Shown here piece by piece: positions 49,630 through 64,000 of a stretch of DNA of 64,000 nucleotides (its first letter is position 1; the number at the start of each line of letters is the position of its first letter). A program made the position numbers and the translations under genes. The stretch comes from Escherichia coli (lineage in GTDB: Bacteria > Pseudomonadota > Gammaproteobacteria > Enterobacterales > Enterobacteriaceae), in NCBI RefSeq assembly GCF_051903065.1, contig NZ_CP178438.1, one strand, 5' to 3'. Under the pieces are notes generated by a model. That model worked only from the letters and a program-made list of their open reading frames with translations, was not told the DNA's origin and ran no database searches.

Positions 49630-50649
49630 TCAGAAGTCGGCTTTCAGGACCACTCGGTAGCGCGCTTTACCATCGCGCACATGCTTGATGGCGTCGTTAA
49701 TTTTCGACATCGGGAACAGTTCGGTAGTCGGCGCAACCTTGCTGCGGGCGGCAAAGCGCATCAGCTTACGCAACTCATAAGGCGTGCCGGTAGCAGAACC
49801 AGAGACGCTGCGGTCGCCCGCAATTAACGTAAAGGCCGGAACAGACAGCGGCGTGAGGACCGCACCGACCGTATGGAAATTACCGCCATAGGTCAGCGCC
49901 TCAAAATAGGGCTGCCAGTCGAGGCTGACGTTGACGGTGTTGATAATGAGATCAAACTGCCCCGCCAGTGCTTTCAGTGCCTGTGGATCGCGGCTATTCA
50001 CCACTTTATCGGCACCCATCGCCAGCACTTCCTGCTCTTTCGCCGGATTAGAACTAAAGGCCGTCACCTCGCATCCCATTGCGTGCAGAAGTTTTATAGC
50101 GATATGCCCCAGCCCGCCAATACCAATTACCCCAACGCGGCTGGTAGCAGTGATATGGTGCATCAACAGTGGTTTAAAGACCGTGATACCGCCGCACAAC
50201 AGCGGCCCGGCGGACTCGATATCAATATTTTCTGGCAGTGGAATCACCCATTGCCAGTCCGCACGCAACTTCTCGGCAAAGCCACCGCGATTCATAATCG
50301 TCGGCACCGCACCTTGCTCGCAGTTGATCTGATTACCGCTAATACAGGCGTCGCAGTGACCACAGCTACGCGCCGTCCAGCCAATCCCGACACGCTGACC
50401 GACCTGCAAACCTTTATCCTGCGCGGCGCTCCCGAGTGCCACCACGCGACCAATCACCTCATGCCCGGCAACCAGCGGATATTGTGAAAATCCCCATTCG
50501 TTATCGATCATCGACAGATCGGAATGGCAGATCCCGCAGTAATCCACCTGCACTTCAACATCTTGTGGCTTCAGTTCACCGGGATCGTACTCATAAACTT
50601 CCAGTTCGCCGCCTGCTTCTTTTGCGGCATAGCTTTTTATCATCGACAT
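49630..50649 (-). CDS. ahr: NADPH-dependent aldehyde reductase Ahr (Zn-dependent alcohol dehydrogenase family)
   Basis: [10 protein letters not shown]...GHEVIG...GIGGLGH motifs; 339 aa from ATG 50649. Confidence 0.9.
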
Positions 50650-50844
50650 TTTTTGGTCCTTCTCTGGTGTTGTCTGGGAAGTGTAGAGCATGGCAGGGCG
50701 GGGTGCCTGGAGTGTGACAAAGGTTACACATCGCTGTATGCAATGCTGAAAATTTCAGCACTTAGCAAAGTGGGTGCAAGCTGGCGCTTGCATGGTGGCG
50801 TGCGACAGGTATAATCCACAACGTTTTCCGCATACCTCTTCAGT

Positions 50845-50929
50845 GCCGAAGTGGCGAAATCGGTAGACGCAGTTGATTCAAAATCAACCGTAGAAATACG
50901 TGCCGGTTCGAGTCCGGCCTTCGGCACCA
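50845..50929 (+). tRNA. leuX: tRNA-Leu (anticodon CAA)
   Basis: 85-nt sequence gccgaagtggcgaaatcggtagacgcagttgattCAAaatcaacc...ggttcgagtccggccttcggcacca with D-arm, long variable arm, T-arm and CCA end. Confidence 0.95.
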
Positions 50930-50942
50930 AAAGTATGTAAAT

Positions 50943-50967
50943 AGACCTCAACTGAGGTCTTTTTTTA
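50943..50967 (+). terminator. rho-independent terminator of leuX
   Basis: Hairpin agacctc-aact-gaggtct followed by T7. Confidence 0.75.
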
Positions 50968-51042
50968 TGCCTGAAATCCAGTGTTTATCTACCTTTCCCG
51001 CTATATTAACTCTCTCAAGGTCAACCGATATCAACGTACATC

Positions 51043-51060
51043 TACCAACATATGTTGGTA
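51043..51060. promoter_or_regulatory. perfect 18-bp palindrome upstream of integrase gene
   Basis: taccaacatatgttggta, with a further half-site ttgtaccaacag about 40 bp downstream; possible integrase or repressor binding site. Confidence 0.3.
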
Positions 51061-51115
51061 CAGATGATGGTATTTCCGGTTCGATAATGCTTGTACCAAC
51101 AGGGAGGGAATACGC

Positions 51116-52381
51116 ATGGCATTAACAGATATCAAAGTCAGAGCAGCCAAGCCAACGGATAAGCAATATAAGCTGACTGATGGTGGCGGTATGCATCTGC
51201 TTGTCCATCCAAATGGTTCTAAGTACTGGCGTTTGCAGTACCGTTATGAGGGAAAGCAAAAAATGCTGGCACTTGGGGTTTATCCTGAAATCACACTAGC
51301 GGATGCCAGAGTACGTCGTGACGAGGCGCGTAAGCTGCTTGCGAATGGCGTCGATCCGGGAGACAAAAAGAAAAATGATAAGGTTGAACAGAGTAAAGCA
51401 CGAACCTTTAAAGAAGTCGCGATTGAGTGGCATGGCACCAATAAAAAGTGGTCTGAAGATCACGCCCATCGTGTGCTAAAAAGTCTGGAAGATAATCTTT
51501 TTGCAGCGCTTGGTGAACGTAATATCGCTGAGTTAAAAACTCGAGATTTATTAGCACCCATTAAGGCCGTAGAAATGTCTGGACGTCTTGAAGTGGCCGC
51601 TCGTCTTCAGCAGCGCACTACAGCCATCATGCGCTATGCAGTGCAAAGTGGGTTAATTGATTATAACCCGGCACAAGAGATGGCTGGGGCGGTTGCTTCC
51701 TGTAATCGACAACATCGTCCCGCGCTTGAATTAAAGCGCATCCCTGAGTTGCTTACAAAAATAGATAGCTATACTGGTAGGCCGCTAACCCGATGGGCGA
51801 CAGAACTCTCTTTGCTGATCTTTATTCGGTCCAGTGAGCTGCGTTTTGCTCGTTGGTCAGAGATCGATTTCGAAGCGTCTATATGGACTATCCCACCGGA
51901 GCGGGAGCCTATTCCTGGAGTGAAACATTCCCATAGAGGCTCAAAAATGCGTACAACGCATCTAGTGCCTCTTTCAACGCAAGCTCTTGCAATTTTAAAG
52001 CAGATAAAACAGTTTTGTGGGGCCCATGACTTGATATTTATTGGTGATCACGATTCGCACAAACCCATGAGTGAGAATACGGTAAATAGTGCGTTACGGG
52101 TCATGGGGTATGATACAAAAGTAGAGGTTTGTGGTCATGGCTTTCGAACAATGGCCTGTAGTTCATTGGTCGAATCAGGTTTGTGGTCTCGTGATGCTGT
52201 TGAACGTCAGATGAGCCACATGGAGCGAAATTCAGTGAGGGCCGCGTATATCCATAAAGCAGAGCATCTGGAAGAACGCCGCTTGATGCTACAATGGTGG
52301 GCCGATTTTCTGGATGCAAACAGAGAAAAATTTATCAGTCCATTTGAATATGCAAAGATTAATAATCCATTAAAACAGTAA
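51116..52381 (+). CDS. P4-type tyrosine integrase (IntB-like) marking a leuX-integrated island
   Basis: 421-aa ORF immediately 3' of a tRNA gene, N-terminal MALTDIKVRAAKP...KYWRL typical of P4 integrases, C-terminal catalytic region with conserved HxxR and Tyr; RBS agggaggg. Confidence 0.9.
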   Translation: MALTDIKVRAAKPTDKQYKLTDGGGMHLLVHPNGSKYWRLQYRYEGKQKMLALGVYPEITLADARVRRDEARKLLANGVDPGDKKKNDKVEQSKARTFKEVAIEWHGTNKKWSEDHAHRVLKSLEDNLFAALGERNIAELKTRDLLAPIKAVEMSGRLEVAARLQQRTTAIMRYAVQSGLIDYNPAQEMAGAVASCNRQHRPALELKRIPELLTKIDSYTGRPLTRWATELSLLIFIRSSELRFARWSEIDFEASIWTIPPEREPIPGVKHSHRGSKMRTTHLVPLSTQALAILKQIKQFCGAHDLIFIGDHDSHKPMSENTVNSALRVMGYDTKVEVCGHGFRTMACSSLVESGLWSRDAVERQMSHMERNSVRAAYIHKAEHLEERRLMLQWWADFLDANREKFISPFEYAKINNPLKQ

Positions 52382-52704
52382 TCATCCCGGGCAAATGCCC
52401 GGGAACTTACTCCATGAATATTTTCTTTGTTAAAAAGGCAAAACGATATTAACTGATGTATTAAATGTTTACCGGATTGCTCCCTGCAGGTGGATTATCA
52501 GAATCCGCAGTTATTCGTTATTTATATATATTCAATAAAAAGAAACATCATAAAAAATCCCGCACCCACAGGGTGATGCGGGATAACTGACGTAAGGAAT
52601 GTTACCGGGATTTGGTGGTCCCTTGTGCTGATATGAATACAGGTTCTATTCTATACAGAATCCTTTTCAGTACAAGAGACTGTATTACAGTTTGCCATAT
52701 ATGA

Positions 52705-54204
52705 TTACCTGTGGTCCGGAAGAATAAGTGGCTGCGGTTTCAGACTGTCTGCCGGCACATTTTTCTCTCCGTTAAAAACCATAACGGGTTCATTATCTTC
52801 GTCTGTCAGCGGATTGAATGGCGGTATATTTTCGGTACGAATACCGGTCAGCCACTGAAAAATGCCTGCGAAATTACGGGCACTGATTTTCCTGCTGACG
52901 GACTGATGAGACGTGATGTCACTGGCGGTAATAATCAGGGGAACGCTGTAGCCCCCCTGCACATGACCATCATGATGAACAGGATTAGCACTGTCGCTGA
53001 CCGACAGCCCATGGTCAGAAAAGTAAAGCATTGCAAAGTGACGGGAATGCCGGCGAAGGATACCATCAAGCTGACCGAGAAAGTTATCCAGTTTACTGAT
53101 GCTGGCGAGGTAACAGGCAATCTTTCGGGGATACTGCTCCAGGTAATAATTCGGCCAGGAGTTAAGTCGGTCACACGGATTCGGATGAGAGCCAATCATG
53201 TGCAGGAAAATCACCTTCGGCGAGGATTTATCCGCCAGCGCACGTTCTGTTTCCTGTAACAACAACATGTCATCCGTTTTACGGGAAGCGAAGCTGCCTT
53301 TCTTGAGGAAAACGGTATGCTCCGCATCAGAAGCAATAACAGAGATGCGTGTGTCATGCTCTCCCAGTTTTCCCTGATTGGATATCCACCATGTGCTGTA
53401 TCCTGCTTTTGCTGCCAGCGCCACCACGTTGTTGCCGGAGTCAGGGTTCTGCTCATAGTCATAAATCAGTGTCCGGCTCAGGGAAGGTACGGTACTGGCT
53501 GCTGTCGATGTATAGCCGTCAATAAATAAACCGGGAGCAGTATTCAGCCACGGCGTGGTTGGCACGGGATAGCCATATACCGACATATAATCCCTGCGCA
53601 CACTCTCACCAGTAACGATAACAATCGTGTCATACAACGGCACACCCGGCAGGATTTTCCAGTTATCAGCCCCGTGCTGACTCAGTTGTTTATAACGCTG
53701 CATTTCACGCAATGTGTCAGTTGTCCCCACAACAGTTCCTTTAACCATCCGCAACGGCCAGCTGTTTACAGAGCATAATACGAATAGCAGCAGTGCCAGC
53801 CAGTTACGGTGACCGCGGTGGTGTGTCCGCCAGAAAATCACCATGAATACCAGAATCGCGGCACTGACCAGAAAATGATAAACAGGAATCATCCCGGTAA
53901 ACTCTGCAGCCTCATCAGCCGTGGTCTGCAGCAACGCGACAATAAAACTGTTGTTGATTTTACCGTACGTCATACCCGCAGGCGCATACAGTGCACAACA
54001 GAACAGAAATAACAGCGCTGTAATGGATGTGAGGGTATTTCTGTGTGCAAGGAGAAGAAGGAGAAACAGAAGCAGCACATTTCCTGTGGCATTCTTCTCA
54101 GTGTATCCGCATGCAATTGTGGTTATTGCAGAAACAACAAAAAAGAATAAAAACAATAAAATCCGGGGTGTGTTTCCCGGACAAAACAGTTTTCTGATAT
54201 TCAT
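52705..54204 (-). CDS. sulfatase-family inner membrane protein, phosphoethanolamine transferase-like (EptA/OpgE family; yjgX-like)
   Basis: 499-aa ORF with N-terminal TM helices and C-terminal sulfatase-type domain (HMIGSH...SDHG). Confidence 0.75.
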   Translation of the reverse strand: MNIRKLFCPGNTPRILLFLFFFVVSAITTIACGYTEKNATGNVLLLFLLLLLAHRNTLTSITALLFLFCCALYAPAGMTYGKINNSFIVALLQTTADEAAEFTGMIPVYHFLVSAAILVFMVIFWRTHHRGHRNWLALLLFVLCSVNSWPLRMVKGTVVGTTDTLREMQRYKQLSQHGADNWKILPGVPLYDTIVIVTGESVRRDYMSVYGYPVPTTPWLNTAPGLFIDGYTSTAASTVPSLSRTLIYDYEQNPDSGNNVVALAAKAGYSTWWISNQGKLGEHDTRISVIASDAEHTVFLKKGSFASRKTDDMLLLQETERALADKSSPKVIFLHMIGSHPNPCDRLNSWPNYYLEQYPRKIACYLASISKLDNFLGQLDGILRRHSRHFAMLYFSDHGLSVSDSANPVHHDGHVQGGYSVPLIITASDITSHQSVSRKISARNFAGIFQWLTGIRTENIPPFNPLTDEDNEPVMVFNGEKNVPADSLKPQPLILPDHR

Positions 54205-54363
54205 CGGAGTATATCGACAACATTATGATGAAGAGAACAGGATAATAAAAATCAGAAATTATCTGTAAAACAGATAACAGACAACCCTGCAGTATAATTA
54301 CTGCAGGGTGTTTCCTTTTAATTACAGAAGATAAGTAATTATTATCTTTCAGGAGCAGTTTCG

Positions 54364-55104
54364 TCAGAAGTTATAAGTCACACCAAGCATGATGTCATGA
54401 CTTTTAACATCAACCTCTGATTTATATTTATCGCCCCACTCATCCTTGTAACTCACACTGCTGTCACCTGCATCAATATAGCGATAGCTGAGGTCAAGAG
54501 CGATATCCGGGGTTACGTCATAACGGACACCAGCCCCAAGGCTCCATGCAAAGTTGTCAGCAGAGTCTGAGTGTGACAACGACTCACGCCCACTGTACCC
54601 GTACCCATAATCCCAGGTACTGATACCAGTTGTTTTCTGATGAATTCTGGCGTAACCAATCCCTGCGGATACCCATGGTGTGAATGCACTGTCGTTCCGG
54701 AAGTCATAGTACGTATTCAGCATCAGAGTGTTGACTGACACTTCATTCTTCAGGTCATCACGCCAGTAACCACCTGACCAGCTGTCTTTATCTACGTTAT
54801 ACTTCGAATCAGCTTTTCCACGCGCGTAAAACTCCAGTTCTGTACGAACCGGAATACTGAACTGCGGATAAAAATCATAACCGGCCGCAATACCGCCACT
54901 GAATACCGTATCATGGTCATCGCCGCCTTTATACTTTGACGTTTCTTCCTCATCTCCTGACAGGAAACGCTGGTCTGAAAGTGACACCACAGAGGCACCG
55001 GCTTTACCGGTCAGATAAAAACCGCTTTTACCTTCCTCAGCACCTGCATTTGCTGCAAATACACAGGCTGCGGCCACCACTGAAACAGCAAAAACCTTTT
55101 TCAT
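54364..55104 (-). CDS. outer membrane beta-barrel protein (OmpA-like transmembrane domain family)
   Basis: 246-aa ORF with signal peptide MKKVFAVSVVAAACVFAANAGA, alternating aromatic/hydrophobic beta-strand pattern and C-terminal ...GVTYNF. Confidence 0.7.
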   Translation of the reverse strand: MKKVFAVSVVAAACVFAANAGAEEGKSGFYLTGKAGASVVSLSDQRFLSGDEEETSKYKGGDDHDTVFSGGIAAGYDFYPQFSIPVRTELEFYARGKADSKYNVDKDSWSGGYWRDDLKNEVSVNTLMLNTYYDFRNDSAFTPWVSAGIGYARIHQKTTGISTWDYGYGYSGRESLSHSDSADNFAWSLGAGVRYDVTPDIALDLSYRYIDAGDSSVSYKDEWGDKYKSEVDVKSHDIMLGVTYNF

Positions 55105-55455
55105 TTCAATTATCTCCGTTATTGCTCCGTTGCTGCAAGCAGTACTCAGTGCATTTTAAAACCCGCCATGCGATAGTCTCAATTGAATAAAATCGATCTA
55201 ATCGATAGATGATATCGATCGTCATTAACCAGAAATTTTTATCGTATTCAGTCAGCACAGATACAACAAATGCATGCCATGCAGACAGTCATACCCGGCA
55301 ACAACAGCAGATGGTTGCTGAGCAAGCAGGGAGTGAGGCTGAATCCCGGGGAAGAAAAAACCTGTAAAATTTGTTTATTCTGCCAGGAGATAAAAGTGAC
55401 GTGTGTTCATGTAACACACCAGGGACGAAAGATGCATGGACTGACAGTTTGGGGG

Positions 55456-56512
55456 GGCTTTGTTGAATAAATCGAACTTTTGCTGAGTTGAAGGATCAGA
55501 TCACGCATCCTCCCGACAACACAGACCATTCCGTGGCAAAGCAAAAGTTCAGAATCACCAACTGGTCCACCTACAACAAAGCTCTCATCAACCGTGGCTC
55601 CCTCACTTTCTGGCTGGATGATGAAGCGATTCAGGCCTGGTATGAGTCGGCAACGCCTTCATCACGAGGAAGGCCCCAGCGCTATTCTGATCTCGCCATC
55701 ACCACCGTTCTGGTGATTAAACGCGTATTCCGGCTGACCCTGCGGGCTGCGCAGGGTTTTATTGATTCCATTTTTGCCCTGATGAACGTTCCGTTGCGCT
55801 GCCCGGATTACACCAGTGTCAGTAAGCGGGCAAAGTCGGTTAATGTCAGTTTCAAAACGTCCACCCGGGGTGAAATCGCACACCTGGTGATTGATTCCAC
55901 CGGGCTGAAGGTCTTTGGTGAAGGCGAATGGAAAGTCAGAAAGCACGGCAAAGAGCGCCGTCGTATCTGGCGAAAGTTGCATCTTGCTGTTGACAGCAAC
56001 ACACATGAAGTTGTCTGTGCAGACCTGTCGCTGAATAACGTCACGGACTCAGAAGCCTTCCCGGGCCTTATCCGGCAGACTCACAGAAAAATCAGGGCAG
56101 CCGCGGCAGACGGGGCTTACGATACCCGGCTCTGTCACGATGAACTGCGCCGCAAAAAAATCAGCGCGCTTATTCCTCCCCGAAAAGGAGCAGGTTACTG
56201 GCCCGGTGAGTACGCAGACCGCAACCGTGCCGTTGCTAATCAGCGGCTGAGCGGAAGCAATGCACGGTGGAAATGGACAACGGAATATAACCGTCGCTCG
56301 ATAGCGGAAACGGCAATGTACAGAATGAAGCAGTTGTTGGGAGATTCACTGACGCTGCGTGACTACGATGGTCAGGTAGCGGAAGCTATGGCCATGGTGC
56401 GTGCGTTGAACAGGATGACAAAGGCTGGGATGCCAGAAAGCGTGCGTATTGCCTGAAAATCCAGCCAGCTACAGGGTCGTTCGCACGAAATCTTATTTAT
56501 TCAACAAAGCCC
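55456..56512 (+). mobile_element. IS903-group insertion sequence (IS5 family), about 1057 bp
   Basis: Left end ggctttgttgaataaatcgaacttttgctgagttgaaggatcag and inverted right end ...tcttatttattcaacaaagcc; single transposase ORF; no flanking 9-bp direct repeat. Confidence 0.85.
55533..56456 (+). CDS. IS903-type transposase (DDE)
   Basis: ORF VAKQKFRITNWSTYNKALINRGSLTFWLDDEAIQAWYE...; start placed at in-frame GTG to give 307 aa (tool ORF begins at TTG 55488). Confidence 0.85.
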   Translation: MAKQKFRITNWSTYNKALINRGSLTFWLDDEAIQAWYESATPSSRGRPQRYSDLAITTVLVIKRVFRLTLRAAQGFIDSIFALMNVPLRCPDYTSVSKRAKSVNVSFKTSTRGEIAHLVIDSTGLKVFGEGEWKVRKHGKERRRIWRKLHLAVDSNTHEVVCADLSLNNVTDSEAFPGLIRQTHRKIRAAAADGAYDTRLCHDELRRKKISALIPPRKGAGYWPGEYADRNRAVANQRLSGSNARWKWTTEYNRRSIAETAMYRMKQLLGDSLTLRDYDGQVAEAMAMVRALNRMTKAGMPESVRIA

Positions 56513-57624
56513 ATACCCCTCTGAAAATCAGTCATCAACTCACCAACACATCTTCTGAAATCTGTATTAAACTTATTGCTTAAATAGATGATATAACACA
56601 TCTTCCATTGCACGGAATCAGCGAAAACTGTCATTCTGGCAATCTTAACAAGATCATTTATCGGTTAATTTTATCAGTAAACAATGGAATATCACACTGA
56701 TAAAATGAACATTCAGGGTAAGATGATAAAATTCACATAAAAAATGCTGAAGATTATTTATTTCATGCAGATAAACGATAAAATACAAGAGAGTATATTT
56801 TTCAGTGTAAGAGTCAATCGTTCATCTCCACTGACGATCACGGTCAGCACATAAACAAAGTGAGTCCTCCTGCTTAGTCATTGCGTATCAGAAACTAAAA
56901 AACAAAAGATTCTGTAAACAACGTGACATTTTTTATGACATTTCCCGAATACAGATATATCAACAAACAGTAGTCAGCGTTGAATTAATAAGTTTTACAG
57001 GGCTATACGTATCTTATAAAACCACTCAACGACCATCATCACCTGACTATTTAGCGGGAGTATCATCTGTATAAATTCCTAAATAATAACACCTGTTATT
57101 AAAATAAGAATGCTGTCAGCAGTAAATTATTAACATAACACCTGTCCACTCTATCTGTTCTTCTAACTCAACCGGCATCGAAAATATTGCCTGATTAGTG
57201 CATCATAGCCTTCTTTTTTCTTTCCCGACCATCAAAACAAATACAACATTTACAACCACACAATAAAACAAAACTAAAACAAAACTAAAACATAAGATTA
57301 ACAACACCAATCAACAGGAAAACACTGAATATTGAGGTGCCCTGTAACCTGGAGAGCGCATACGGCGCATGTGATCAACACAGCCCATTCTTTTCTGTCA
57401 TCCCCCAAATGCAGAACAAACAAGCATAACCTAATGAATATAAAATAAAATATTATTTTTCACCATCATAAAAACATCAATGTATCTTTATATAAAAACA
57501 CTGATAACATGACATAAACATTTAAAAACATAAACAAATCACAACAAAAACATTTGATAATCACTTAGTGACAAAATAAAATTGAGACGATTTTGTTATA
57601 AGAGAGGCGCCATGGAGTGAGATA

Positions 57625-58644
57625 ATGAATAACGAACAGATGCTTATCAAATGCAAAGATCCCCGTAAATGTCGGTTTTATGCTGAATATCTGAATCACA
57701 AATACCCCAATGAATTCCCTCAGTTTGCGCCTGACAACCCACAAAACTGTATCAGAAATGTTAATGCGTTTTTAAAAGAAAAGTATTGTAATACTTCAAA
57801 CAATTCTTTTGGTGTTTTTGGTTCGACTGCAGAAGAAGCTCTCAGCAAAGAAATTAATGAACTTGAAATTATTGCAGGGCAGGCAATACTGCCTGAAGAG
57901 AGTTTTCTCTGGTTGAAAACTGACGAACTTGCGACTTTCTTTACCTGGACTACTATTTATCTGTCGAAGGAAGACCATACAAATTTCCCGGAAATAAACC
58001 ATAATTCATCAGGGATAAAAAACGGAATTGAAGTCAGAAAAAGACGAACAGTTACCGATGAAACGTTAAATACTTACAAAAAAAGTAACCTTCCGGATAA
58101 TCCATCATCCCATAACGAACGAATAAAAGTAATCATTTTATATTTTGATTCCTGTCATTCTTTAATTAATAAAAATGCAAAAAGCATATACCTCGAGGAA
58201 CTCAGGCAGACGTGGCTTAAAAATAAAAGCGCTTGTCAAAAGTTTAAGTGGCTCCTTCCTGACGATGATGAAATGTGTCAGTGGTTCTGGACAAGACTGA
58301 AACAAAAACAGGATGAAACACATCCGGTACATAACCCGGTGACCCGGTGGTTCATACCATCTTCAACGAAAGAATATTATCTTGCCTCTCTCGTCGCCTT
58401 TGCTTTATGGAAAGAGGCACCTGATACCATTGAACTGTTCAGAACACGCATAAATCATGCCTGGCATCAAAAAAAACAAAAAGACAAATATCGGAATGAT
58501 GGTAAAAAGGCTATTAATATACATATAAGAAGCAATGCGAAAGAAATGCTTGATGAACTCAGAACTGTTTACGGTCTGAGAACAGGAGAGTTTTTTGAAA
58601 TGCTGATTACAGAAAAATATCTTGAACACAAGCGAAGGAAGTAA
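57625..58644 (+). CDS. hypothetical protein, AT-rich orphan ORF
   Basis: 339-aa ORF with RBS ggagtgag upstream; lysine/asparagine-rich, several Cys/His; no family recognised from sequence alone. Confidence 0.5.
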   Translation: MNNEQMLIKCKDPRKCRFYAEYLNHKYPNEFPQFAPDNPQNCIRNVNAFLKEKYCNTSNNSFGVFGSTAEEALSKEINELEIIAGQAILPEESFLWLKTDELATFFTWTTIYLSKEDHTNFPEINHNSSGIKNGIEVRKRRTVTDETLNTYKKSNLPDNPSSHNERIKVIILYFDSCHSLINKNAKSIYLEELRQTWLKNKSACQKFKWLLPDDDEMCQWFWTRLKQKQDETHPVHNPVTRWFIPSSTKEYYLASLVAFALWKEAPDTIELFRTRINHAWHQKKQKDKYRNDGKKAINIHIRSNAKEMLDELRTVYGLRTGEFFEMLITEKYLEHKRRK

Positions 58645-58695
58645 TTCATTACCTGTTACATTCTAAATAATCTCAGACAGATATTATCTCCGTGA

Positions 58696-58731
58696 ATCCC
58701 CCGCCACCTTTCCGGTGCGCGGGGTTTTGTC
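58696..58731 (+). terminator. putative rho-independent terminator downstream of the 339-aa ORF
   Basis: GC-rich inverted repeat ccccgc...gcgggg followed by ttttgtctttttt. Confidence 0.45.
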
Positions 58732-58753
58732 TTTTTTCACCGGGAATACATGT

Positions 58754-59581
58754 ATGAATCCGTCTGATGCCATTGAGGCAATTGAAAAACCGCTCTCCTC
58801 CCTGCCTTACTCACTTTCCCGTCACATCCTGGAACATCTGCGCAAACTCACCAGCCACGAACCCGTGATTGGCATTATGGGGAAAAGCGGGGCCGGTAAA
58901 TCCTCACTCTGTAATGCACTGTTTCAGGGGGAGGTCACCCCGGTCAGTGATGTTCACGCCGGCACCCGGGAAGTGCAGCGCTTCCGTCTGAGTGGCCATG
59001 GTCACAGCATGGTTATCACTGACCTGCCCGGGGTGGGCGAGAGCCGTGACAGGGATGCAGAGTATGAAGCCCTGTACCGTAACATTCTGCCTGAACTTGA
59101 CCTGGTACTGTGGCTGATTAAAGCCGATGACCGTGCCTTGTCTGTGGATGAGTATTTCTGGCGACACATTCTGCACCGGGGACATCAGCAGGTGCTGTTT
59201 GTGGTGACGCAGGCCGATAAAACGGAGCCCTGCCATGAATGGGATATGGCCGGTATTCAGCCTTCTCCCGCACAGGCACAGAACATTCGCGAAAAAACGG
59301 AGGCGGTATTCCGTCTGTTCCGGCCCGTACATCCGGTTGTGGCCGTATCGGCTCGCACCGGCTGGGAACTGGATACGCTGGTCAGTGCGCTCATGACAGC
59401 GCTTCCCGACCATGCCGCCAGTCCCCTGATGACCCGCCTGCAGGACGAGCTGCGCACGGAATCTGTCCGCGCTCAGGCCCGTGAACAGTTTACCGGTGCG
59501 GTGGACCGGATATTTGACACGGCGGAGAGCGTCTGTATTGCCTCTGTTGCCCGCGCGGTATGGAACTGGATTTTCTTCTGA
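58754..59581 (+). CDS. YfjP/YeeP/YkfA-family small GTPase (prophage-like island backbone GTPase)
   Basis: P-loop GIMGKSGAGKSSLCNALF, G3 DLPGVGE, G4-like TQADK, C-terminal ...ARAVWNWIFF resembling K-12 YfjP/YkfA from memory; start at ATG 58754 (tool ORF starts at GTG 58715). Confidence 0.8.
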   Translation: MNPSDAIEAIEKPLSSLPYSLSRHILEHLRKLTSHEPVIGIMGKSGAGKSSLCNALFQGEVTPVSDVHAGTREVQRFRLSGHGHSMVITDLPGVGESRDRDAEYEALYRNILPELDLVLWLIKADDRALSVDEYFWRHILHRGHQQVLFVVTQADKTEPCHEWDMAGIQPSPAQAQNIREKTEAVFRLFRPVHPVVAVSARTGWELDTLVSALMTALPDHAASPLMTRLQDELRTESVRAQAREQFTGAVDRIFDTAESVCIASVARAVWNWIFF

Positions 59582-59701
59582 ACCCGGTGGTGATGCACCA
59601 GACTCTTGTTACAGATTTTTAACTCCATGAAAACACAATGCAAACGCAGCCATACCCGGGTTGTCCCCTTGTGTTGTGTTTTCCAGATTAATAGAATGCA
59701 T

Positions 59702-59720
59702 CGATCGTTATAAACGATCG
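59702..59720. promoter_or_regulatory. perfect inverted repeat (cgatcgtt-ata-aacgatcg) about 60 bp upstream of the dynamin-like gene
   Basis: 8-bp arms with 3-bp spacer in the 200-bp gap between the two GTPase genes; candidate operator. Confidence 0.3.
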
Positions 59721-59780
59721 TTTGTGGTAAATGACCTCCTCCGTGGTTGTCATGAAAATGCGTCTCAGGAAGGTTAAATA

Positions 59781-62165
59781 ATGCACGAAAAGAACATCGC
59801 CCTGCTTTGTGATGAAGCCGACCGACTTTTGCAACTGAACATTAATCTGCTCCGGCAAATGGTTGATGAACCGGATGTGTTATCTGACAGTAAGAACGAA
59901 AACAGACTGCTTTTCGATAAACAGAAAGCACTGAAAAGAATTGAGGAGCTGGAGGGCGAACAAATCAAAACCGCCCGCAGGGAGATGGTGCTGGCTGTTG
60001 TCGGCACGATGAAAGCAGGTAAATCAACTACCATCAACGCCATTGTGGGGCAGGAAATTCTGCCTAACCGTAACCGCCCCATGACCTCTGTACCGACGCT
60101 CATCCGCCACGTTCCCGGAAAAACTGAGCCGGTCCTCCATCTGGAACATATTCAGCCCGTCCGCAATTTATTAAGCACACTGCAACAAAAACTCGACACC
60201 CCGGCAGGACAGCAAGTCGCACAGACCCTGCAGCAAACCGGGGATACCTGCGAACTGCTGGATATTCTGGCAAATGATGGCTGGCTCAAAAATGAATACC
60301 ACGGGGAGGAGGAAATCTTTACCGGACTGGCATCGTTAAACGATCTGGTTCGCCTTGCTGCGGCAATGGGGAGTGAGTTTCCTTTTGATGAATACGCAGA
60401 AGTGCAGAAACTGCCGGTGATCGACGTGGAATTCAGCCATCTGGTGGGGATGGATGCATGCCAGGGAACACTCACACTGCTGGATACCCCCGGCCCTAAT
60501 GAGGCCGGACAACCGCAGATGGAAGTGATGATGCGGGATCAACTGCAGAAAGCCTCTGCGGTGCTGGCGGTGATGGATTACACCCAGATGAACTCAAAAG
60601 CGGATGAAGACGTCCGTAAAGAGCTTAATGCCATTGCTGACGTATCAGCCGGCCGCCTGTTTGTGCTGGTCAATAAATTTGATGAGAAAGACCGCAATGG
60701 CGATGGGGCAGATGCCGTACGCCAGAAAGTTCCGGCAATGCTGAACAGTGATGTGCTGCCCGCCTCCCGCGTTTATCCAGGCTCATCACGTCAGGCGTAC
60801 CTGGCTAACCGTGCGCTTCATGAGTTACGGAAAAACGGAACCCTTCCTGTTGATGAAGCCTGGGTCGATGATTTTGTCAGGGAAGCCTTCGGTCGCATGA
60901 AAAAAGAATACGTCTGTAAAGACAGTGAAATGGCAACCGAAGGGGCGACAGACCTGTGGGAAGGTTCACTTATCGATCAACTGATAACGGAAGTCATACA
61001 GAGCTCCCATTCCAGAGCGGCGGCACTGGCGGTTGATTCTGCCGCCGCAAAACTGATGCAGAATGCGGAAAATGTCAGCGAATATCTGTCATTACGCCAT
61101 CAGGGGCTACAGCAAAGCATTCAGTCACTGCAGGCGCATATCTCCAGCCTGCTGGCGGATATCCGGGAAATCGCGGACTGTCAGGAGCAGGTGACCGCAG
61201 ATGTCAGAATGGCTATGGAGGAGATCGATACTAAAACCCGGGAATTACTGACGGGGGTCTGCACCTCACTGGAAGAGGAGCTGAATGACTATTTCAGAAG
61301 CGGTAAACGCAAAGAACAGCAAATGCTGGAGGAAGAAAATTCAGCGCAGCCCCGGGAGAGAAACGCATTCGCTTTCTTTCACGATATTTTCGGAACCGGA
61401 AATCAGCATGACAGGATGCGGGACTTTGATCCGGACAGCCCCGAAATAAAATTCAGTGATCGCAGGGAAGCCCTTGAACTGATGACGCAAATCGAATCGA
61501 CCGTGACCAGCCTGCACCGTGAGGCTGAAGCACAGTTCCGTCCTGAACTGGAAAAAATCGTCAGGGGTATTGAAACAGGTTTTCGTGGTACGGCCCTGTA
61601 CGCCACAGAAAATATTGCCGGACGCATCAATGCCCGTCTGGAGGATGAAGGTTTCACTGTAAAAATCAGTTTTCCGGCAGTCAGCCAGTTACAGACCCGG
61701 CTCGCAGTAAAAACAAATCTGAGCGCGCTTATGGAGGAAAGAACGGAGACCGTCACTCGTCGCTGTCGACAGGATGGTGTCTGGGGTACGCTTTGTCGAT
61801 GGGCAAACACCAGTGACTGGGGCTGGAAAGAGTACAGTGTGGATGTGAGCCGCAGCGTGATCAATATCAACAAGGTCAGAGAGGAAGTGATGTCACTGAC
61901 CCGGGCATATTTCGGGGAGCTGCAGGCATCCATTGAGCAGGATATTAACCAGCCCGTCCGCCAGGAAATCGATGCCTTTTTCTGCGCATTCAGGGAGAAA
62001 GTTGAACAACTGCGTAACACGCTGATTCAGAGCTCTGAAGATCGTAAACGCGATCAGCAGGCGCAGGAACGGCTTACCGGGCGACTTCAGGCATTAAATG
62101 AAAGGGTTCCTGAGCTCATTACTGACAGTAAGGCGCTGAGGGAAGAGCTGGAGACAATGCTGTGA
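59781..62165 (+). CDS. bacterial dynamin-like large GTPase
   Basis: 794-aa ORF; G1 VVGTMKAGKSTTINAIVG (res 73-90), G3 LLDTPGPNE, G4 VLVNKFDEKD, followed by about 500 aa of helical/coiled-coil stalk-like sequence; RBS caggaagg 7 nt upstream. Confidence 0.8.
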   Translation: MHEKNIALLCDEADRLLQLNINLLRQMVDEPDVLSDSKNENRLLFDKQKALKRIEELEGEQIKTARREMVLAVVGTMKAGKSTTINAIVGQEILPNRNRPMTSVPTLIRHVPGKTEPVLHLEHIQPVRNLLSTLQQKLDTPAGQQVAQTLQQTGDTCELLDILANDGWLKNEYHGEEEIFTGLASLNDLVRLAAAMGSEFPFDEYAEVQKLPVIDVEFSHLVGMDACQGTLTLLDTPGPNEAGQPQMEVMMRDQLQKASAVLAVMDYTQMNSKADEDVRKELNAIADVSAGRLFVLVNKFDEKDRNGDGADAVRQKVPAMLNSDVLPASRVYPGSSRQAYLANRALHELRKNGTLPVDEAWVDDFVREAFGRMKKEYVCKDSEMATEGATDLWEGSLIDQLITEVIQSSHSRAAALAVDSAAAKLMQNAENVSEYLSLRHQGLQQSIQSLQAHISSLLADIREIADCQEQVTADVRMAMEEIDTKTRELLTGVCTSLEEELNDYFRSGKRKEQQMLEEENSAQPRERNAFAFFHDIFGTGNQHDRMRDFDPDSPEIKFSDRREALELMTQIESTVTSLHREAEAQFRPELEKIVRGIETGFRGTALYATENIAGRINARLEDEGFTVKISFPAVSQLQTRLAVKTNLSALMEERTETVTRRCRQDGVWGTLCRWANTSDWGWKEYSVDVSRSVININKVREEVMSLTRAYFGELQASIEQDINQPVRQEIDAFFCAFREKVEQLRNTLIQSSEDRKRDQQAQERLTGRLQALNERVPELITDSKALREELETML

Positions 62166-63067
62166 CTTCACCATTTATTCAACAAATTGCTGATAACCGG
62201 GTATGTCAGGTACTCACCTGTCTTCCTGAAAAATTTGTGGTTGATTTCGCAAACGGAATCGATGTTGCACAGGAGCATATCCGCACGGCCGGAGAGCGCA
62301 CGTTCTTCCGGCGTTTAAAAGAGGGGATGACCGGCGAAGGCGCTGCACGGCAGAATGCCATCAATGCTTCGCTTGCACAGGGCGTTGAGGCGTCCCTGCG
62401 CTGGCTGACGGAGCTGACAACGTCACTTGCCACCACAAACTACGCGATTACCCGGGTAAACGACAGGGTCAGTTCACTGGTCAGTGATACTGCCAGGCTG
62501 GCGCATTATTCGGCTGACACGCGGGAGCAGTTACTCACCCTGGCCGATCAGGTTCACCAGAAACTGAATCATCTTGAAGAAAAACTCCACCGTGTTGACC
62601 AGGTTCAGCGGGCGCAGTTACATCTTGAGCAGATATTCTCATGGTGGAGCGCCGGGCGATATGCGTCATTTTCCCCTGCCGGACGTTGTTATGTGGCACT
62701 TGAAGAGCTTCGCTGGGGCGCGTTTGGTGATGTGATACGCCAGGGCGAAACAGGCCAGGTTAACCAGCTACTGGATATTCTCAGACATAAAGCATTAACG
62801 CAGATGGCACAGGAGAGTGGCGGTAGTGCAACCGTGCGTCTGAACACTCTGGACTGGCTTGGTGGTCAGGGCCGGGAGCAGGCAGATAACGAGTGGCATG
62901 ACGCGATTAACTGGCTGGGGGACTGGTGCAGTGAAGAGCAGCATCCGGTGATCTGGTCAACCACGCAGGCTGCAGAACACTTACCGGTTCGCATGCCTCG
63001 CCTCTGCTCTGCAGAACGCCTCTCTGAAAGTATGGTCGATGAAATATTTCAGAAGGGGGCAGCATGA
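62162..63067 (+). CDS. hypothetical protein of unknown function, translationally coupled to flanking genes
   Basis: 301-aa ORF whose GTG start overlaps the upstream stop (GTGA) and whose stop overlaps the downstream ATG (ATGA); predicted helical middle region. Confidence 0.55.
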   Translation: MTSPFIQQIADNRVCQVLTCLPEKFVVDFANGIDVAQEHIRTAGERTFFRRLKEGMTGEGAARQNAINASLAQGVEASLRWLTELTTSLATTNYAITRVNDRVSSLVSDTARLAHYSADTREQLLTLADQVHQKLNHLEEKLHRVDQVQRAQLHLEQIFSWWSAGRYASFSPAGRCYVALEELRWGAFGDVIRQGETGQVNQLLDILRHKALTQMAQESGGSATVRLNTLDWLGGQGREQADNEWHDAINWLGDWCSEEQHPVIWSTTQAAEHLPVRMPRLCSAERLSESMVDEIFQKGAA

Positions 63068-64000
63068 GTACAGAAATGAAAACGGGGCTGGTGCTGTCCG
63101 GCGGCGGGGCGGTGGGCGCTTATCAGGCAGGTGTGGTTAAGGCACTGGCAGAGTGTGGCACACAGATCAGCATGGTTTCAGGGGCCAGCATTGGCGCATT
63201 CAATGGTGCCATTATCGCGGCCTCTCCCGATCTGTCAGAAGCAGCCGCACGCCTGGAGGCGCTCTGGAAGCATCTGGGGAATAATCAGGTGCTGTCGGTA
63301 AACCGATCGGTTTACTTTTCATTGCTGAAAAAAATGGTTCAGGCCATGAACCTCTGCCAGATCCCCGGACGTGCAGGAGCACTGCTTACGACACTTCTTC
63401 GCCATATATCGATAATCAACGGCTTCGACAATCCGATGGCTCAGCCGCTGTTGTCAGATGAGCCTCTGACAGCGCTGTTGGATCATTATCTTGATACTGA
63501 TGCTCTGGCAGACGGGCTACCGCTGTATGTGTCGCTGTACCCCACAGAAGGGGGCATGCAGGATATTATTGACTGCATTCGTGCTGAACTGGGTGCCGGA
63601 ACCACGAAAAACGCCGTTTTTCAGCATATCCAGAGCCTGCCCCGCGGACAGCAGAAAGAGGCTCTGCTTGCGTCAGCCGCGCTGCCCCTGCTGTTCCGTC
63701 CCCGTGAGGTTCAGGGGACAATGTTCGGTGATGGTGGTATGGGAGGATGGCGAAATATGCAGGGAAATACCCCTGTGACGCCTCTGGTCGATGCCGGATG
63801 CAATATGGTGATTGTGACGCATCTGAGTGACGGTTCTTTATGGGATCGCCAGGCTTTTCCGGACACCACAATCCTTGAGATCCGTCCCCGGAAAAGGCTG
63901 AAATATGCAGGTGATGGTGGCAACAGCGGCGGTCTGCTCAGTTTCACGTTGGCACATACCGACGCCTGGCGTCAGCAGGGCTATGAAGACACGATGCTGA
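63064..64000 (+). CDS. patatin-like phospholipase (3' end beyond window)
   Basis: Oxyanion-hole GGGAVGAY, catalytic Ser in GASIG (GxSxG) and catalytic Asp in FGDGGM (DGG) in the correct order and spacing; ORF is open to the window end. Confidence 0.8.
   Translation, partial: MSTEMKTGLVLSGGGAVGAYQAGVVKALAECGTQISMVSGASIGAFNGAIIAASPDLSEAAARLEALWKHLGNNQVLSVNRSVYFSLLKKMVQAMNLCQIPGRAGALLTTLLRHISIINGFDNPMAQPLLSDEPLTALLDHYLDTDALADGLPLYVSLYPTEGGMQDIIDCIRAELGAGTTKNAVFQHIQSLPRGQQKEALLASAALPLLFRPREVQGTMFGDGGMGGWRNMQGNTPVTPLVDAGCNMVIVTHLSDGSLWDRQAFPDTTILEIRPRKRLKYAGDGGNSGGLLSFTLAHTDAWRQQGYEDTML

Follow-up and report, generated by a model that had tools for sequence, protein, structure and literature searches.

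A mobile three-gene operon encoding a dynamin-like GTPase, a YjcZ/RdcB-family protein and a patatin-like phospholipase in Escherichia coli and other Proteobacteria

The window analyzed here is a 64,000 nt stretch of Escherichia coli DNA (RefSeq assembly GCF_051903065.1, contig NZ_CP178438.1), and the element under study is a run of three genes at its 3′ end that encode a dynamin-like GTPase, a YjcZ/RdcB-family protein and a patatin-like phospholipase (genes 1, 2 and 3; Table 1). These genes form a self-contained, horizontally mobile three-gene module, called the trio below. The first two proteins are full-length homologues of RdcA (YjdA/CrfC) and RdcB (YjcZ), the pair that activates the diguanylate cyclase DgcE in E. 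coli K-12. To our knowledge, and in the papers searched, it has not been reported that the trio, with exactly three genes, is the general and widely distributed form of the YjcZ family, that RdcAB appears to be its lipase-less derivative, or that the GTPase tip loops of the two types differ systematically. The trio is carried by nearly half of complete E. coli genomes, often in several copies.

Organization of the operon

The three open reading frames (ORFs) lie on the plus strand and, as seen in the ORF list and by reading of the sequence, are joined by 4 nt overlaps (GTGA at 62162-62165 and ATGA at 63064-63067). A Shine-Dalgarno-like GGAG or GGGGG precedes the starts of genes 2 and 3. RefSeq calls the same three coding sequences in identical DNA, where they are named “dynamin family protein”, “diguanylate cyclase regulator RdcB family protein” and “patatin-like phospholipase family protein”. 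One translationally coupled operon, with overlaps at these positions, was what the original prediction had proposed, and this holds. Transmembrane (TM) segments and signal peptides are predicted in none of the three proteins.

Gene 3 runs off the end of the window, and its remainder was read from E. coli GDSC2BY4G, which is 100% identical to the window across 59600-64000 and 99.9% identical across 50800-59700. The complete gene encodes 356 amino acids (aa) and ends at window-equivalent position 64134, 134 nt past the window (L002 17465-18535). About 20 nt further on, at ~64154-64170, lies a terminator-like GC-rich hairpin followed by a T-run. Because the end of the patatin gene is followed by this hairpin, the operon consists of exactly three genes; the expectation that more operon genes would be found beyond the window was not borne out. 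All-against-all clustering of the flanking ORFs of 29 trio loci (described below) likewise revealed no fourth conserved gene.

Three candidates for a fourth gene were considered and rejected. Beyond the patatin gene come genes for two proteins of 227 and 136 aa, both with signal peptides, which are found beside the trio in Escherichia only. The YeeP-type GTPase gene that precedes the trio likewise accompanies it only in Escherichia, with no homologue beside the trio in the remaining 28 loci; in O157:H7 the two are separated by the cah autotransporter gene.

Conservation of the three-gene unit

A scan with the YjcZ alignment of one genome per GTDB species yielded 79 loci, which tblastn with the window proteins split cleanly into 29 trio-type and 50 RdcAB-type loci. 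A patatin gene was present in all 29 trio-type loci and in none of the 50 RdcAB-type loci. The trio-type patatins are full-length, 41-95% identical, and encoded directly downstream on the same strand, and a dynamin-like gene lies upstream wherever the contig extends that far. The co-occurrence that the original prediction had put up for checking is thus found, with constant gene order, in 29/29 YjcZ loci that are not of the RdcAB type.

Trio-type loci belong to Gamma- and Betaproteobacteria. Their hosts include Pantoea, Erwinia, Budvicia, nine Pseudomonas genomes, Thiodictyon, Allochromatium, Macromonas, Aquaspirillum, Comamonadaceae, Paenacidovorax, Gallionella, Pontibacterium, Marinospirillum, Yanghanlia, HdN1 and several metagenome-assembled genomes. 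The 50 RdcAB-type loci all come from Enterobacteriaceae and carry clear RdcA/RdcB orthologues. With starts taken from the longest ORFs, apparent overlaps of 4 or 1 nt were seen at 23 of 28 dynamin-YjcZ junctions and 14 of 29 YjcZ-patatin junctions.

A profile search of 1.84 billion representative proteins returned 468 clusters at E <= 1e-3, which makes YjcZ a small family. Three of its most distant relatives among the matches listed are still encoded between Dynamin_N and Patatin genes, and in a dynamin-less variant located downstream of parE and parC, the gene for a 532-aa DUF3944-YjcZ fusion overlaps the patatin gene after it (L091 6001-8630). The link between YjcZ and patatin is therefore the tightest in the family, and the RdcAB clade is the exception. 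The RefSeq name “diguanylate cyclase regulator” probably misdescribes the patatin-linked members.

An additional 99-aa ORF without a Pfam match was noted between the dynamin-like and YjcZ genes in Methylomonas koyamae and in a metagenome contig (L085 9617-9916, L086 1774-2073).

Relationship to RdcA and RdcB

The rdcA-rdcB pair of K-12, which is followed by proP, resembles the trio in gene order and in the same 4 nt overlap as well as in the full-length homology of both proteins. Identity is only 34% for the GTPase (BLASTP, across 743 residues) and 30% for the YjcZ protein, and in the GTPase it is unevenly spread: the G-domain half reaches 50% and the C-terminal half 19%. The NCBIfam model for CrfC/YjdA/RdcA (NF007368) aligns with gene 1 from end to end (E 6.7e-171) at 570 bits, against an equivalog cutoff of 1146. 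By these comparisons gene 1 is classed as a paralogue of RdcA, not an orthologue.

RdcA dimerizes and binds RdcB, and it docks to the membrane-embedded MASE1 domain of DgcE (Pfiffer et al., PMC6510439). The T103D variant, which is GTPase-dead and GTP-locked, no longer docks, K82A is still active, and RdcA/RdcB have been proposed to act as a reader of cellular GTP (PMC6510439). Both residues are conserved in the trio, as K81 and T102. These parallels would suit a role for the island pair in cyclic di-GMP signaling, to which the RefSeq name of gene 2 also points, with modulation of DgcE or another MASE1 cyclase and the patatin as a side activity, and DgcE is present in the E. coli hosts (established knowledge; PMC6510439). 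We consider such a role highly improbable given the low identity and the missed equivalog cutoff. Moreover, the invariant partner is a patatin, no conserved cyclase was found near the 29 loci or in the annotated contexts, and hosts of the trio include Pseudomonas, Chromatiaceae and Betaproteobacteria, whereas the RdcAB-type pairs recovered are confined to Enterobacteriaceae. The RdcA/RdcB system is a two-gene operon that acts on DgcE under control of the flagellar regulon; the trio differs from it in having a patatin and no conserved cyclase nearby.

Neighbor-joining trees, left unrooted as no outgroup could be aligned, placed RdcAB inside the Enterobacterales branch of the trio family. The grouping of RdcA with the trio dynamin of Budvicia was recovered in 200 of 200 bootstraps; a split that sets these two and the enteric island dynamins apart from the non-enteric trio dynamins was recovered in 167/200; and RdcB grouped with the enteric island YjcZ proteins in 177/200. 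Because of these splits and of the taxonomic distribution (two proteobacterial classes versus Enterobacteriaceae), the parsimonious inference is that RdcAB, a chromosomal pair, would be a derivative, without the lipase, of the mobile and widespread trio. If so, the link would explain the origin of the RdcA/RdcB input to the master diguanylate cyclase DgcE.

Features of the three proteins

Gene 1 matches Pfam Dynamin_N at E 8e-18 (residues 71-299). Its product has the hallmarks of the dynamin superfamily in both sequence (a large G domain with motifs G1-G4) and fold (a G domain with a helical bundle or stalk), arranged as N-terminal helices, a G domain at ~68-400, a long helical stalk and a basic, Trp-rich tip loop at ~655-690. 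GTMKAGKS with the G1 Lys81, the G2 Thr102, the G3 motif DTPG and the G4 motif NKFD are invariant in every homologue that covers them. The superfamily assignment made in the original prediction is thus confirmed; a relationship to LeoA or DynA, which it also suggested, gives way to paralogy with RdcA/CrfC.

The two types of GTPase differ systematically in the tip. Trio-type proteins share the conserved pattern RRRxxGxWGxxCxWFxTxDWGWExY, whereas core RdcA has lost the basic cluster and the first Trp. This pattern is what one would expect if the trio-type GTPase binds anionic phospholipids directly.

In E. coli alleles (this window, O157:H7 and Nissle 1917), differences in the GTPase are clustered. 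The tip loop (~655-690; window ~61740-61850) is most variable, and residues 371-395 and 460-495 also differ. Synonymous divergence (dS) is 0.02-0.04 in the YjcZ gene versus 0.14-0.24 in the GTPase gene. Recombination or diversifying selection could account for the combination of clustered GTPase variation with a much more uniform YjcZ gene. Purifying selection acts on the E. coli copies, with ratios of nonsynonymous to synonymous divergence (dN/dS) of 0.11-0.29 in eight of nine comparisons.

Gene 2, for which no domain had been recognized at first reading, is a full-length match to Pfam PF13990 (YjcZ) at E 1.8e-70, with residues 26-296 aligned to positions 1-272 of the 272-position model. Its product presumably binds the dynamin-like protein as an adaptor or regulator. 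A sequence search of the PDB with YjcZ returned nothing significant.

Gene 3 matches Pfam Patatin (PF01734) at E 4.9e-25 and has the full catalytic signature that was read from it originally, SGGGxxGAY, GxS42xG and D223GG, in which Ser42, Asp223 and the glycine loop are invariant in 30/30 sequences. It is on this basis a member of the patatin-like phospholipase family with predicted activity. By sequence, its nearest relatives of solved structure are PlpD (5e-12) and then VipD and ExoU. These three and CapV of the cyclic oligonucleotide-based antiphage signaling system (CBASS) share with gene 3 the patatin signature, the Ser-Asp dyad and the glycine-rich oxyanion loop; unlike the toxins PlpD, VipD and ExoU, the gene 3 product is predicted not to be secreted.

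Distribution in E. coli and on mobile elements

By megablast at a threshold of >=80% coverage, the trio is present in 2440 of 5426 complete E. coli genomes (~45%), at up to five places per genome, and O157:H7 and Nissle 1917 are among the strains that carry it. Integration sites differ: the copy in this window is at leuX, that of O157:H7 at a tRNA-Ser gene (beside ghrA), that of Nissle 1917 at the CP4-44 position and that of strain 50EVA next to paoD. In E. coli the trio is invariably located in the variable slot of CP4-type islands, with the backbone genes (DUF932, antirestriction, RadC-like and CbtA/CbeA) downstream of it. IncF and conjugative plasmids on record from Klebsiella, Enterobacter and E. 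coli carry a variant with 63% identity, and a Pseudomonas copy lies on an element with an integrase.

This setting bears on whether the trio is an addiction or competition device, in which the patatin would be a toxin restrained by the other two proteins so as to stabilize islands and plasmids, or an effector against other cells. Proximity to the CbtA/CbeA toxin-antitoxin genes in islands and to ccdAB on plasmids fits such a device, as does the toxin activity of the related patatins ExoU, VipD and PlpD. We nevertheless judge it quite improbable, since the patatin has neither a secretion signal nor a linked secretion system, and a GTPase of 89.7 kDa would be out of the ordinary as an antitoxin. 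IS100 (IS21 family) interrupts the dynamin-like gene in several E. coli strains whose RdcB-like and patatin genes are annotated as intact, which argues against simple antitoxin dependence.

A possible role in defense or stress responses

We tentatively propose that the trio is a GTPase/adaptor switch that licenses a membrane-degrading lipase upon stress or phage infection, in the manner of an abortive infection system. For the protein contacts, the trigger, the action of the lipase on the cell's own membrane and the role in defense, we infer the following sequence of events. By analogy with RdcA/RdcB and DgcE, the GTPase and its YjcZ partner would act as a switch set by nucleotide state, and its output would be the co-translated patatin lipase, kept inactive in unstressed cells. 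Phage infection, membrane perturbation or a fall in GTP might serve as the trigger. The dynamin-like protein would then use its basic, Trp-rich tip to assemble at the inner membrane and would deliver or activate the lipase, and phospholipid hydrolysis would stop growth or kill the cell. Release of a cytoplasmic patatin onto the inner membrane would be lethal or growth-arresting, as with CapV in CBASS. If the GTPase pair does gate the lipase, membrane-targeting suicide or stress systems would gain a new sensor logic, a dynamin-type nucleotide switch, and the YjcZ/RdcB family would gain a biochemical role.

A more inclusive version of this proposal, which we find rather doubtful as a whole, is that the trio is a new mobile stress or immunity module whose GTPase and YjcZ protein read GTP status, membrane or phage cues and whose patatin attacks the host membrane, with RdcAB as a domesticated, lipase-less descendant re-targeted to the MASE1 domain of DgcE.

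The operon has been remarked upon before in E. coli MP1, as a “putative dynamin defence system” that is strongly upregulated in Kapi1 lysogens, and the ~30% identity to RdcAB was noted there as well (2026, PMC12922286). The claim that no described system combines these genes is therefore to be qualified: they match no PADLOC model and no characterized system, but the combination itself had been seen. Full-text literature searches returned no paper that combines dynamin-like proteins, patatin and phage defense.

Defense-related genes adjoin a number of trio loci. Type I restriction-modification genes and two DUF262 genes lie just upstream of the trio in strain 50EVA, and genes for BrxC (1385 bits) in Pantoea eucrina, for a type I restriction-modification methylase and specificity subunit in Pseudomonas putida and for a PDC-S24 protein in HdN1 stand beside it. 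An IS1-flanked gene ~2 kb downstream of the trio, in the same island, encodes a PDDEXK-like protein that matches PADLOC PDC-S26 at E 7e-34 (L002 20618-21841). WYL-type regulators are encoded directly upstream of the trio in six loci. In Allochromatium, the trio is wedged together with genes for a Uma2 endonuclease, a small HVO_A0114-family protein and Fic between ileS and lspA, which are normally adjacent (L084 7551-14065).

Several observations weigh against the proposed defense role. A second sample, of 20 neighboring ORFs from ten other loci, gave no defense match apart from one polymerase-like protein. No catalogued defense model in PADLOC-DB v2.0.0 fits the trio components: the LeoBC model scores 3.6e-5 on gene 1 with no qualifying stretch, the LeoA model does not match, and CBASS-type effector models match only the N-terminal ~65 aa of gene 3, weakly (2e-5 to 9e-3). 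The CBASS lipase model reaches 20.1 bits on gene 3 against a cutoff of 200. No trio protein was matched in searches of PHROGs and phage genomes, and the trio is absent from phage genomes. Although the operon is very common in E. coli, it is not known to have been picked up when isolates of this species were functionally screened with T4, T7 or lambda. The switch analogy is loose, because nucleotide-free RdcA is the active form.

The association with defense genes is real but patchy. The original prediction had suggested a check for defense-gene enrichment; the first sample of neighbors was promising and the second was negative, and a strong, general enrichment in defense islands was dropped. 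Because defense genes adjoin some trio loci and not most of those sampled, the defense role is put forward here as a hypothesis.

Maintenance or remodeling of membranes offers a different account of the same proteins. The GTPase would tether or fuse damaged inner membrane, like DynA of B. subtilis and mycobacterial IniA, while lysolipids and fatty acids made by the patatin would ease curvature or damaged lipids would be cleared by it; the outcome would be protection against envelope stress, including phage or colicin pores, and not killing. In keeping with this idea, gene 1 is closest in fold to SynDLP, the mitofusins, IniA and Campylobacter DLP1/2 and has a basic, Trp-rich tip loop; catalytic residues are conserved; and some trio loci lie among housekeeping or transport genes with no defense neighbors. 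We think it unlikely, as gene 1 has neither a hydrophobic paddle nor a TM segment and its nearest characterized relative, RdcA, is a soluble signaling protein and not a remodeler. In addition, the patchy, mobile and multi-copy distribution and the WYL regulators are better suited to accessory stress or defense cargo.

Comparison with known systems

Eleos (LeoA and LeoBC) and B. subtilis DynA resemble the trio in having a dynamin-superfamily GTPase, in their location in mobile or accessory DNA and in a suspected role in phage defense. They differ in having two or fused GTPases in place of one, and in having no YjcZ partner and no lipase. Membership of the trio in Eleos was rejected on the LeoA and LeoBC results given above, as was kinship with DynA, whose match to gene 1 (4e-7) covers 43 aa only. 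CBASS was likewise rejected, with its lipase model below the cutoff and no cyclase among the conserved neighbors. Unlike CBASS, the trio has no cyclase or nucleotide-sensing domain, and its lipase would be regulated by protein partners, not by a cyclic nucleotide. Relative to the membrane-remodeling dynamin-like proteins (DLPs), of which SynDLP, BDLP, IniA and Campylobacter DLP1/2 were compared, the trio GTPase shows 12-20% identity and differs in its lack of a hydrophobic paddle and in its dedicated YjcZ and patatin partners.

Flanking sequences and neighboring genes

The trio lies in an island bounded by leuX and an integrase gene and containing an insertion sequence, as had been read from the window at the outset; the coordinates are collected in Table 1.

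Table 1. Position of the trio and of neighboring features in the window
Feature	Position	Strand	Remarks
Gene 1, dynamin-like GTPase, classed as a paralogue of RdcA (YjdA/CrfC)	59781-62165	+	794 aa, ATG start
Gene 2, YjcZ/RdcB-family all-helical protein	62162-63067	+	301 aa, GTG start
Gene 3, predicted patatin-like phospholipase	63064-64000, cut by the window end	+	312 codons open to the last base
Leader 5′ of gene 1	59582-59780	+	intergenic; palindrome and AGGAAGG ribosome-binding site
YeeP/YkfA-type small GTPase	58715-59581	+	island backbone, context only; RefSeq “GTPase family protein”
leuX tRNA-Leu(CAA)	50845-50929	+	ARAGORN
Tyrosine integrase beside leuX	51116-52381	+	ORF list, RefSeq annotation
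leuX and integrase block, island boundary	50845-52381	+	context
IS5 transposase	55488-56456		ORF list, RefSeq annotation

The leader contains a perfect 8+3+8 palindrome, CGATCGTTATAAACGATCG, at 59702-59720, ~60 nt 5′ of the gene 1 start, with halves arranged as CGATCGTT-ATA-AACGATCG. Further 5′, within 59625-59680, is another hairpin, imperfect this time (AACACAA...TTGTGTT), with a T-run after it. The palindrome or hairpin could be an operator of the operon or the terminator of the YeeP-like gene. A promoter scan detected no sigma-70 consensus 5′ of gene 1 and identified no FliA promoter there. In an Rfam search of 50000-64000 the tRNA alone was matched, and no known small RNA or riboswitch was found in the leader.

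An AT-rich ORF of 339 aa (~35-42% GC; 57625-58644), located between IS5 and the YeeP-like GTPase gene, is annotated by RefSeq as a hypothetical protein and has no match in Pfam, NCBIfam, PADLOC or PHROGs. The gene for the 136-aa exported protein 3′ of the trio, as found in other E. coli islands (L001 17370-17780), matches phrog_8968 (E 2e-37), a family of unknown function, and is truncated by IS1 in the strain from which the window was taken. Adjoining the integrase gene just inside the island, on the minus strand (52705-54204 and 54364-55104), are genes for a phosphoethanolamine transferase and an outer-membrane protein, a mobile cargo for the modification of lipid A or lipopolysaccharide that might be relevant to polymyxin susceptibility.

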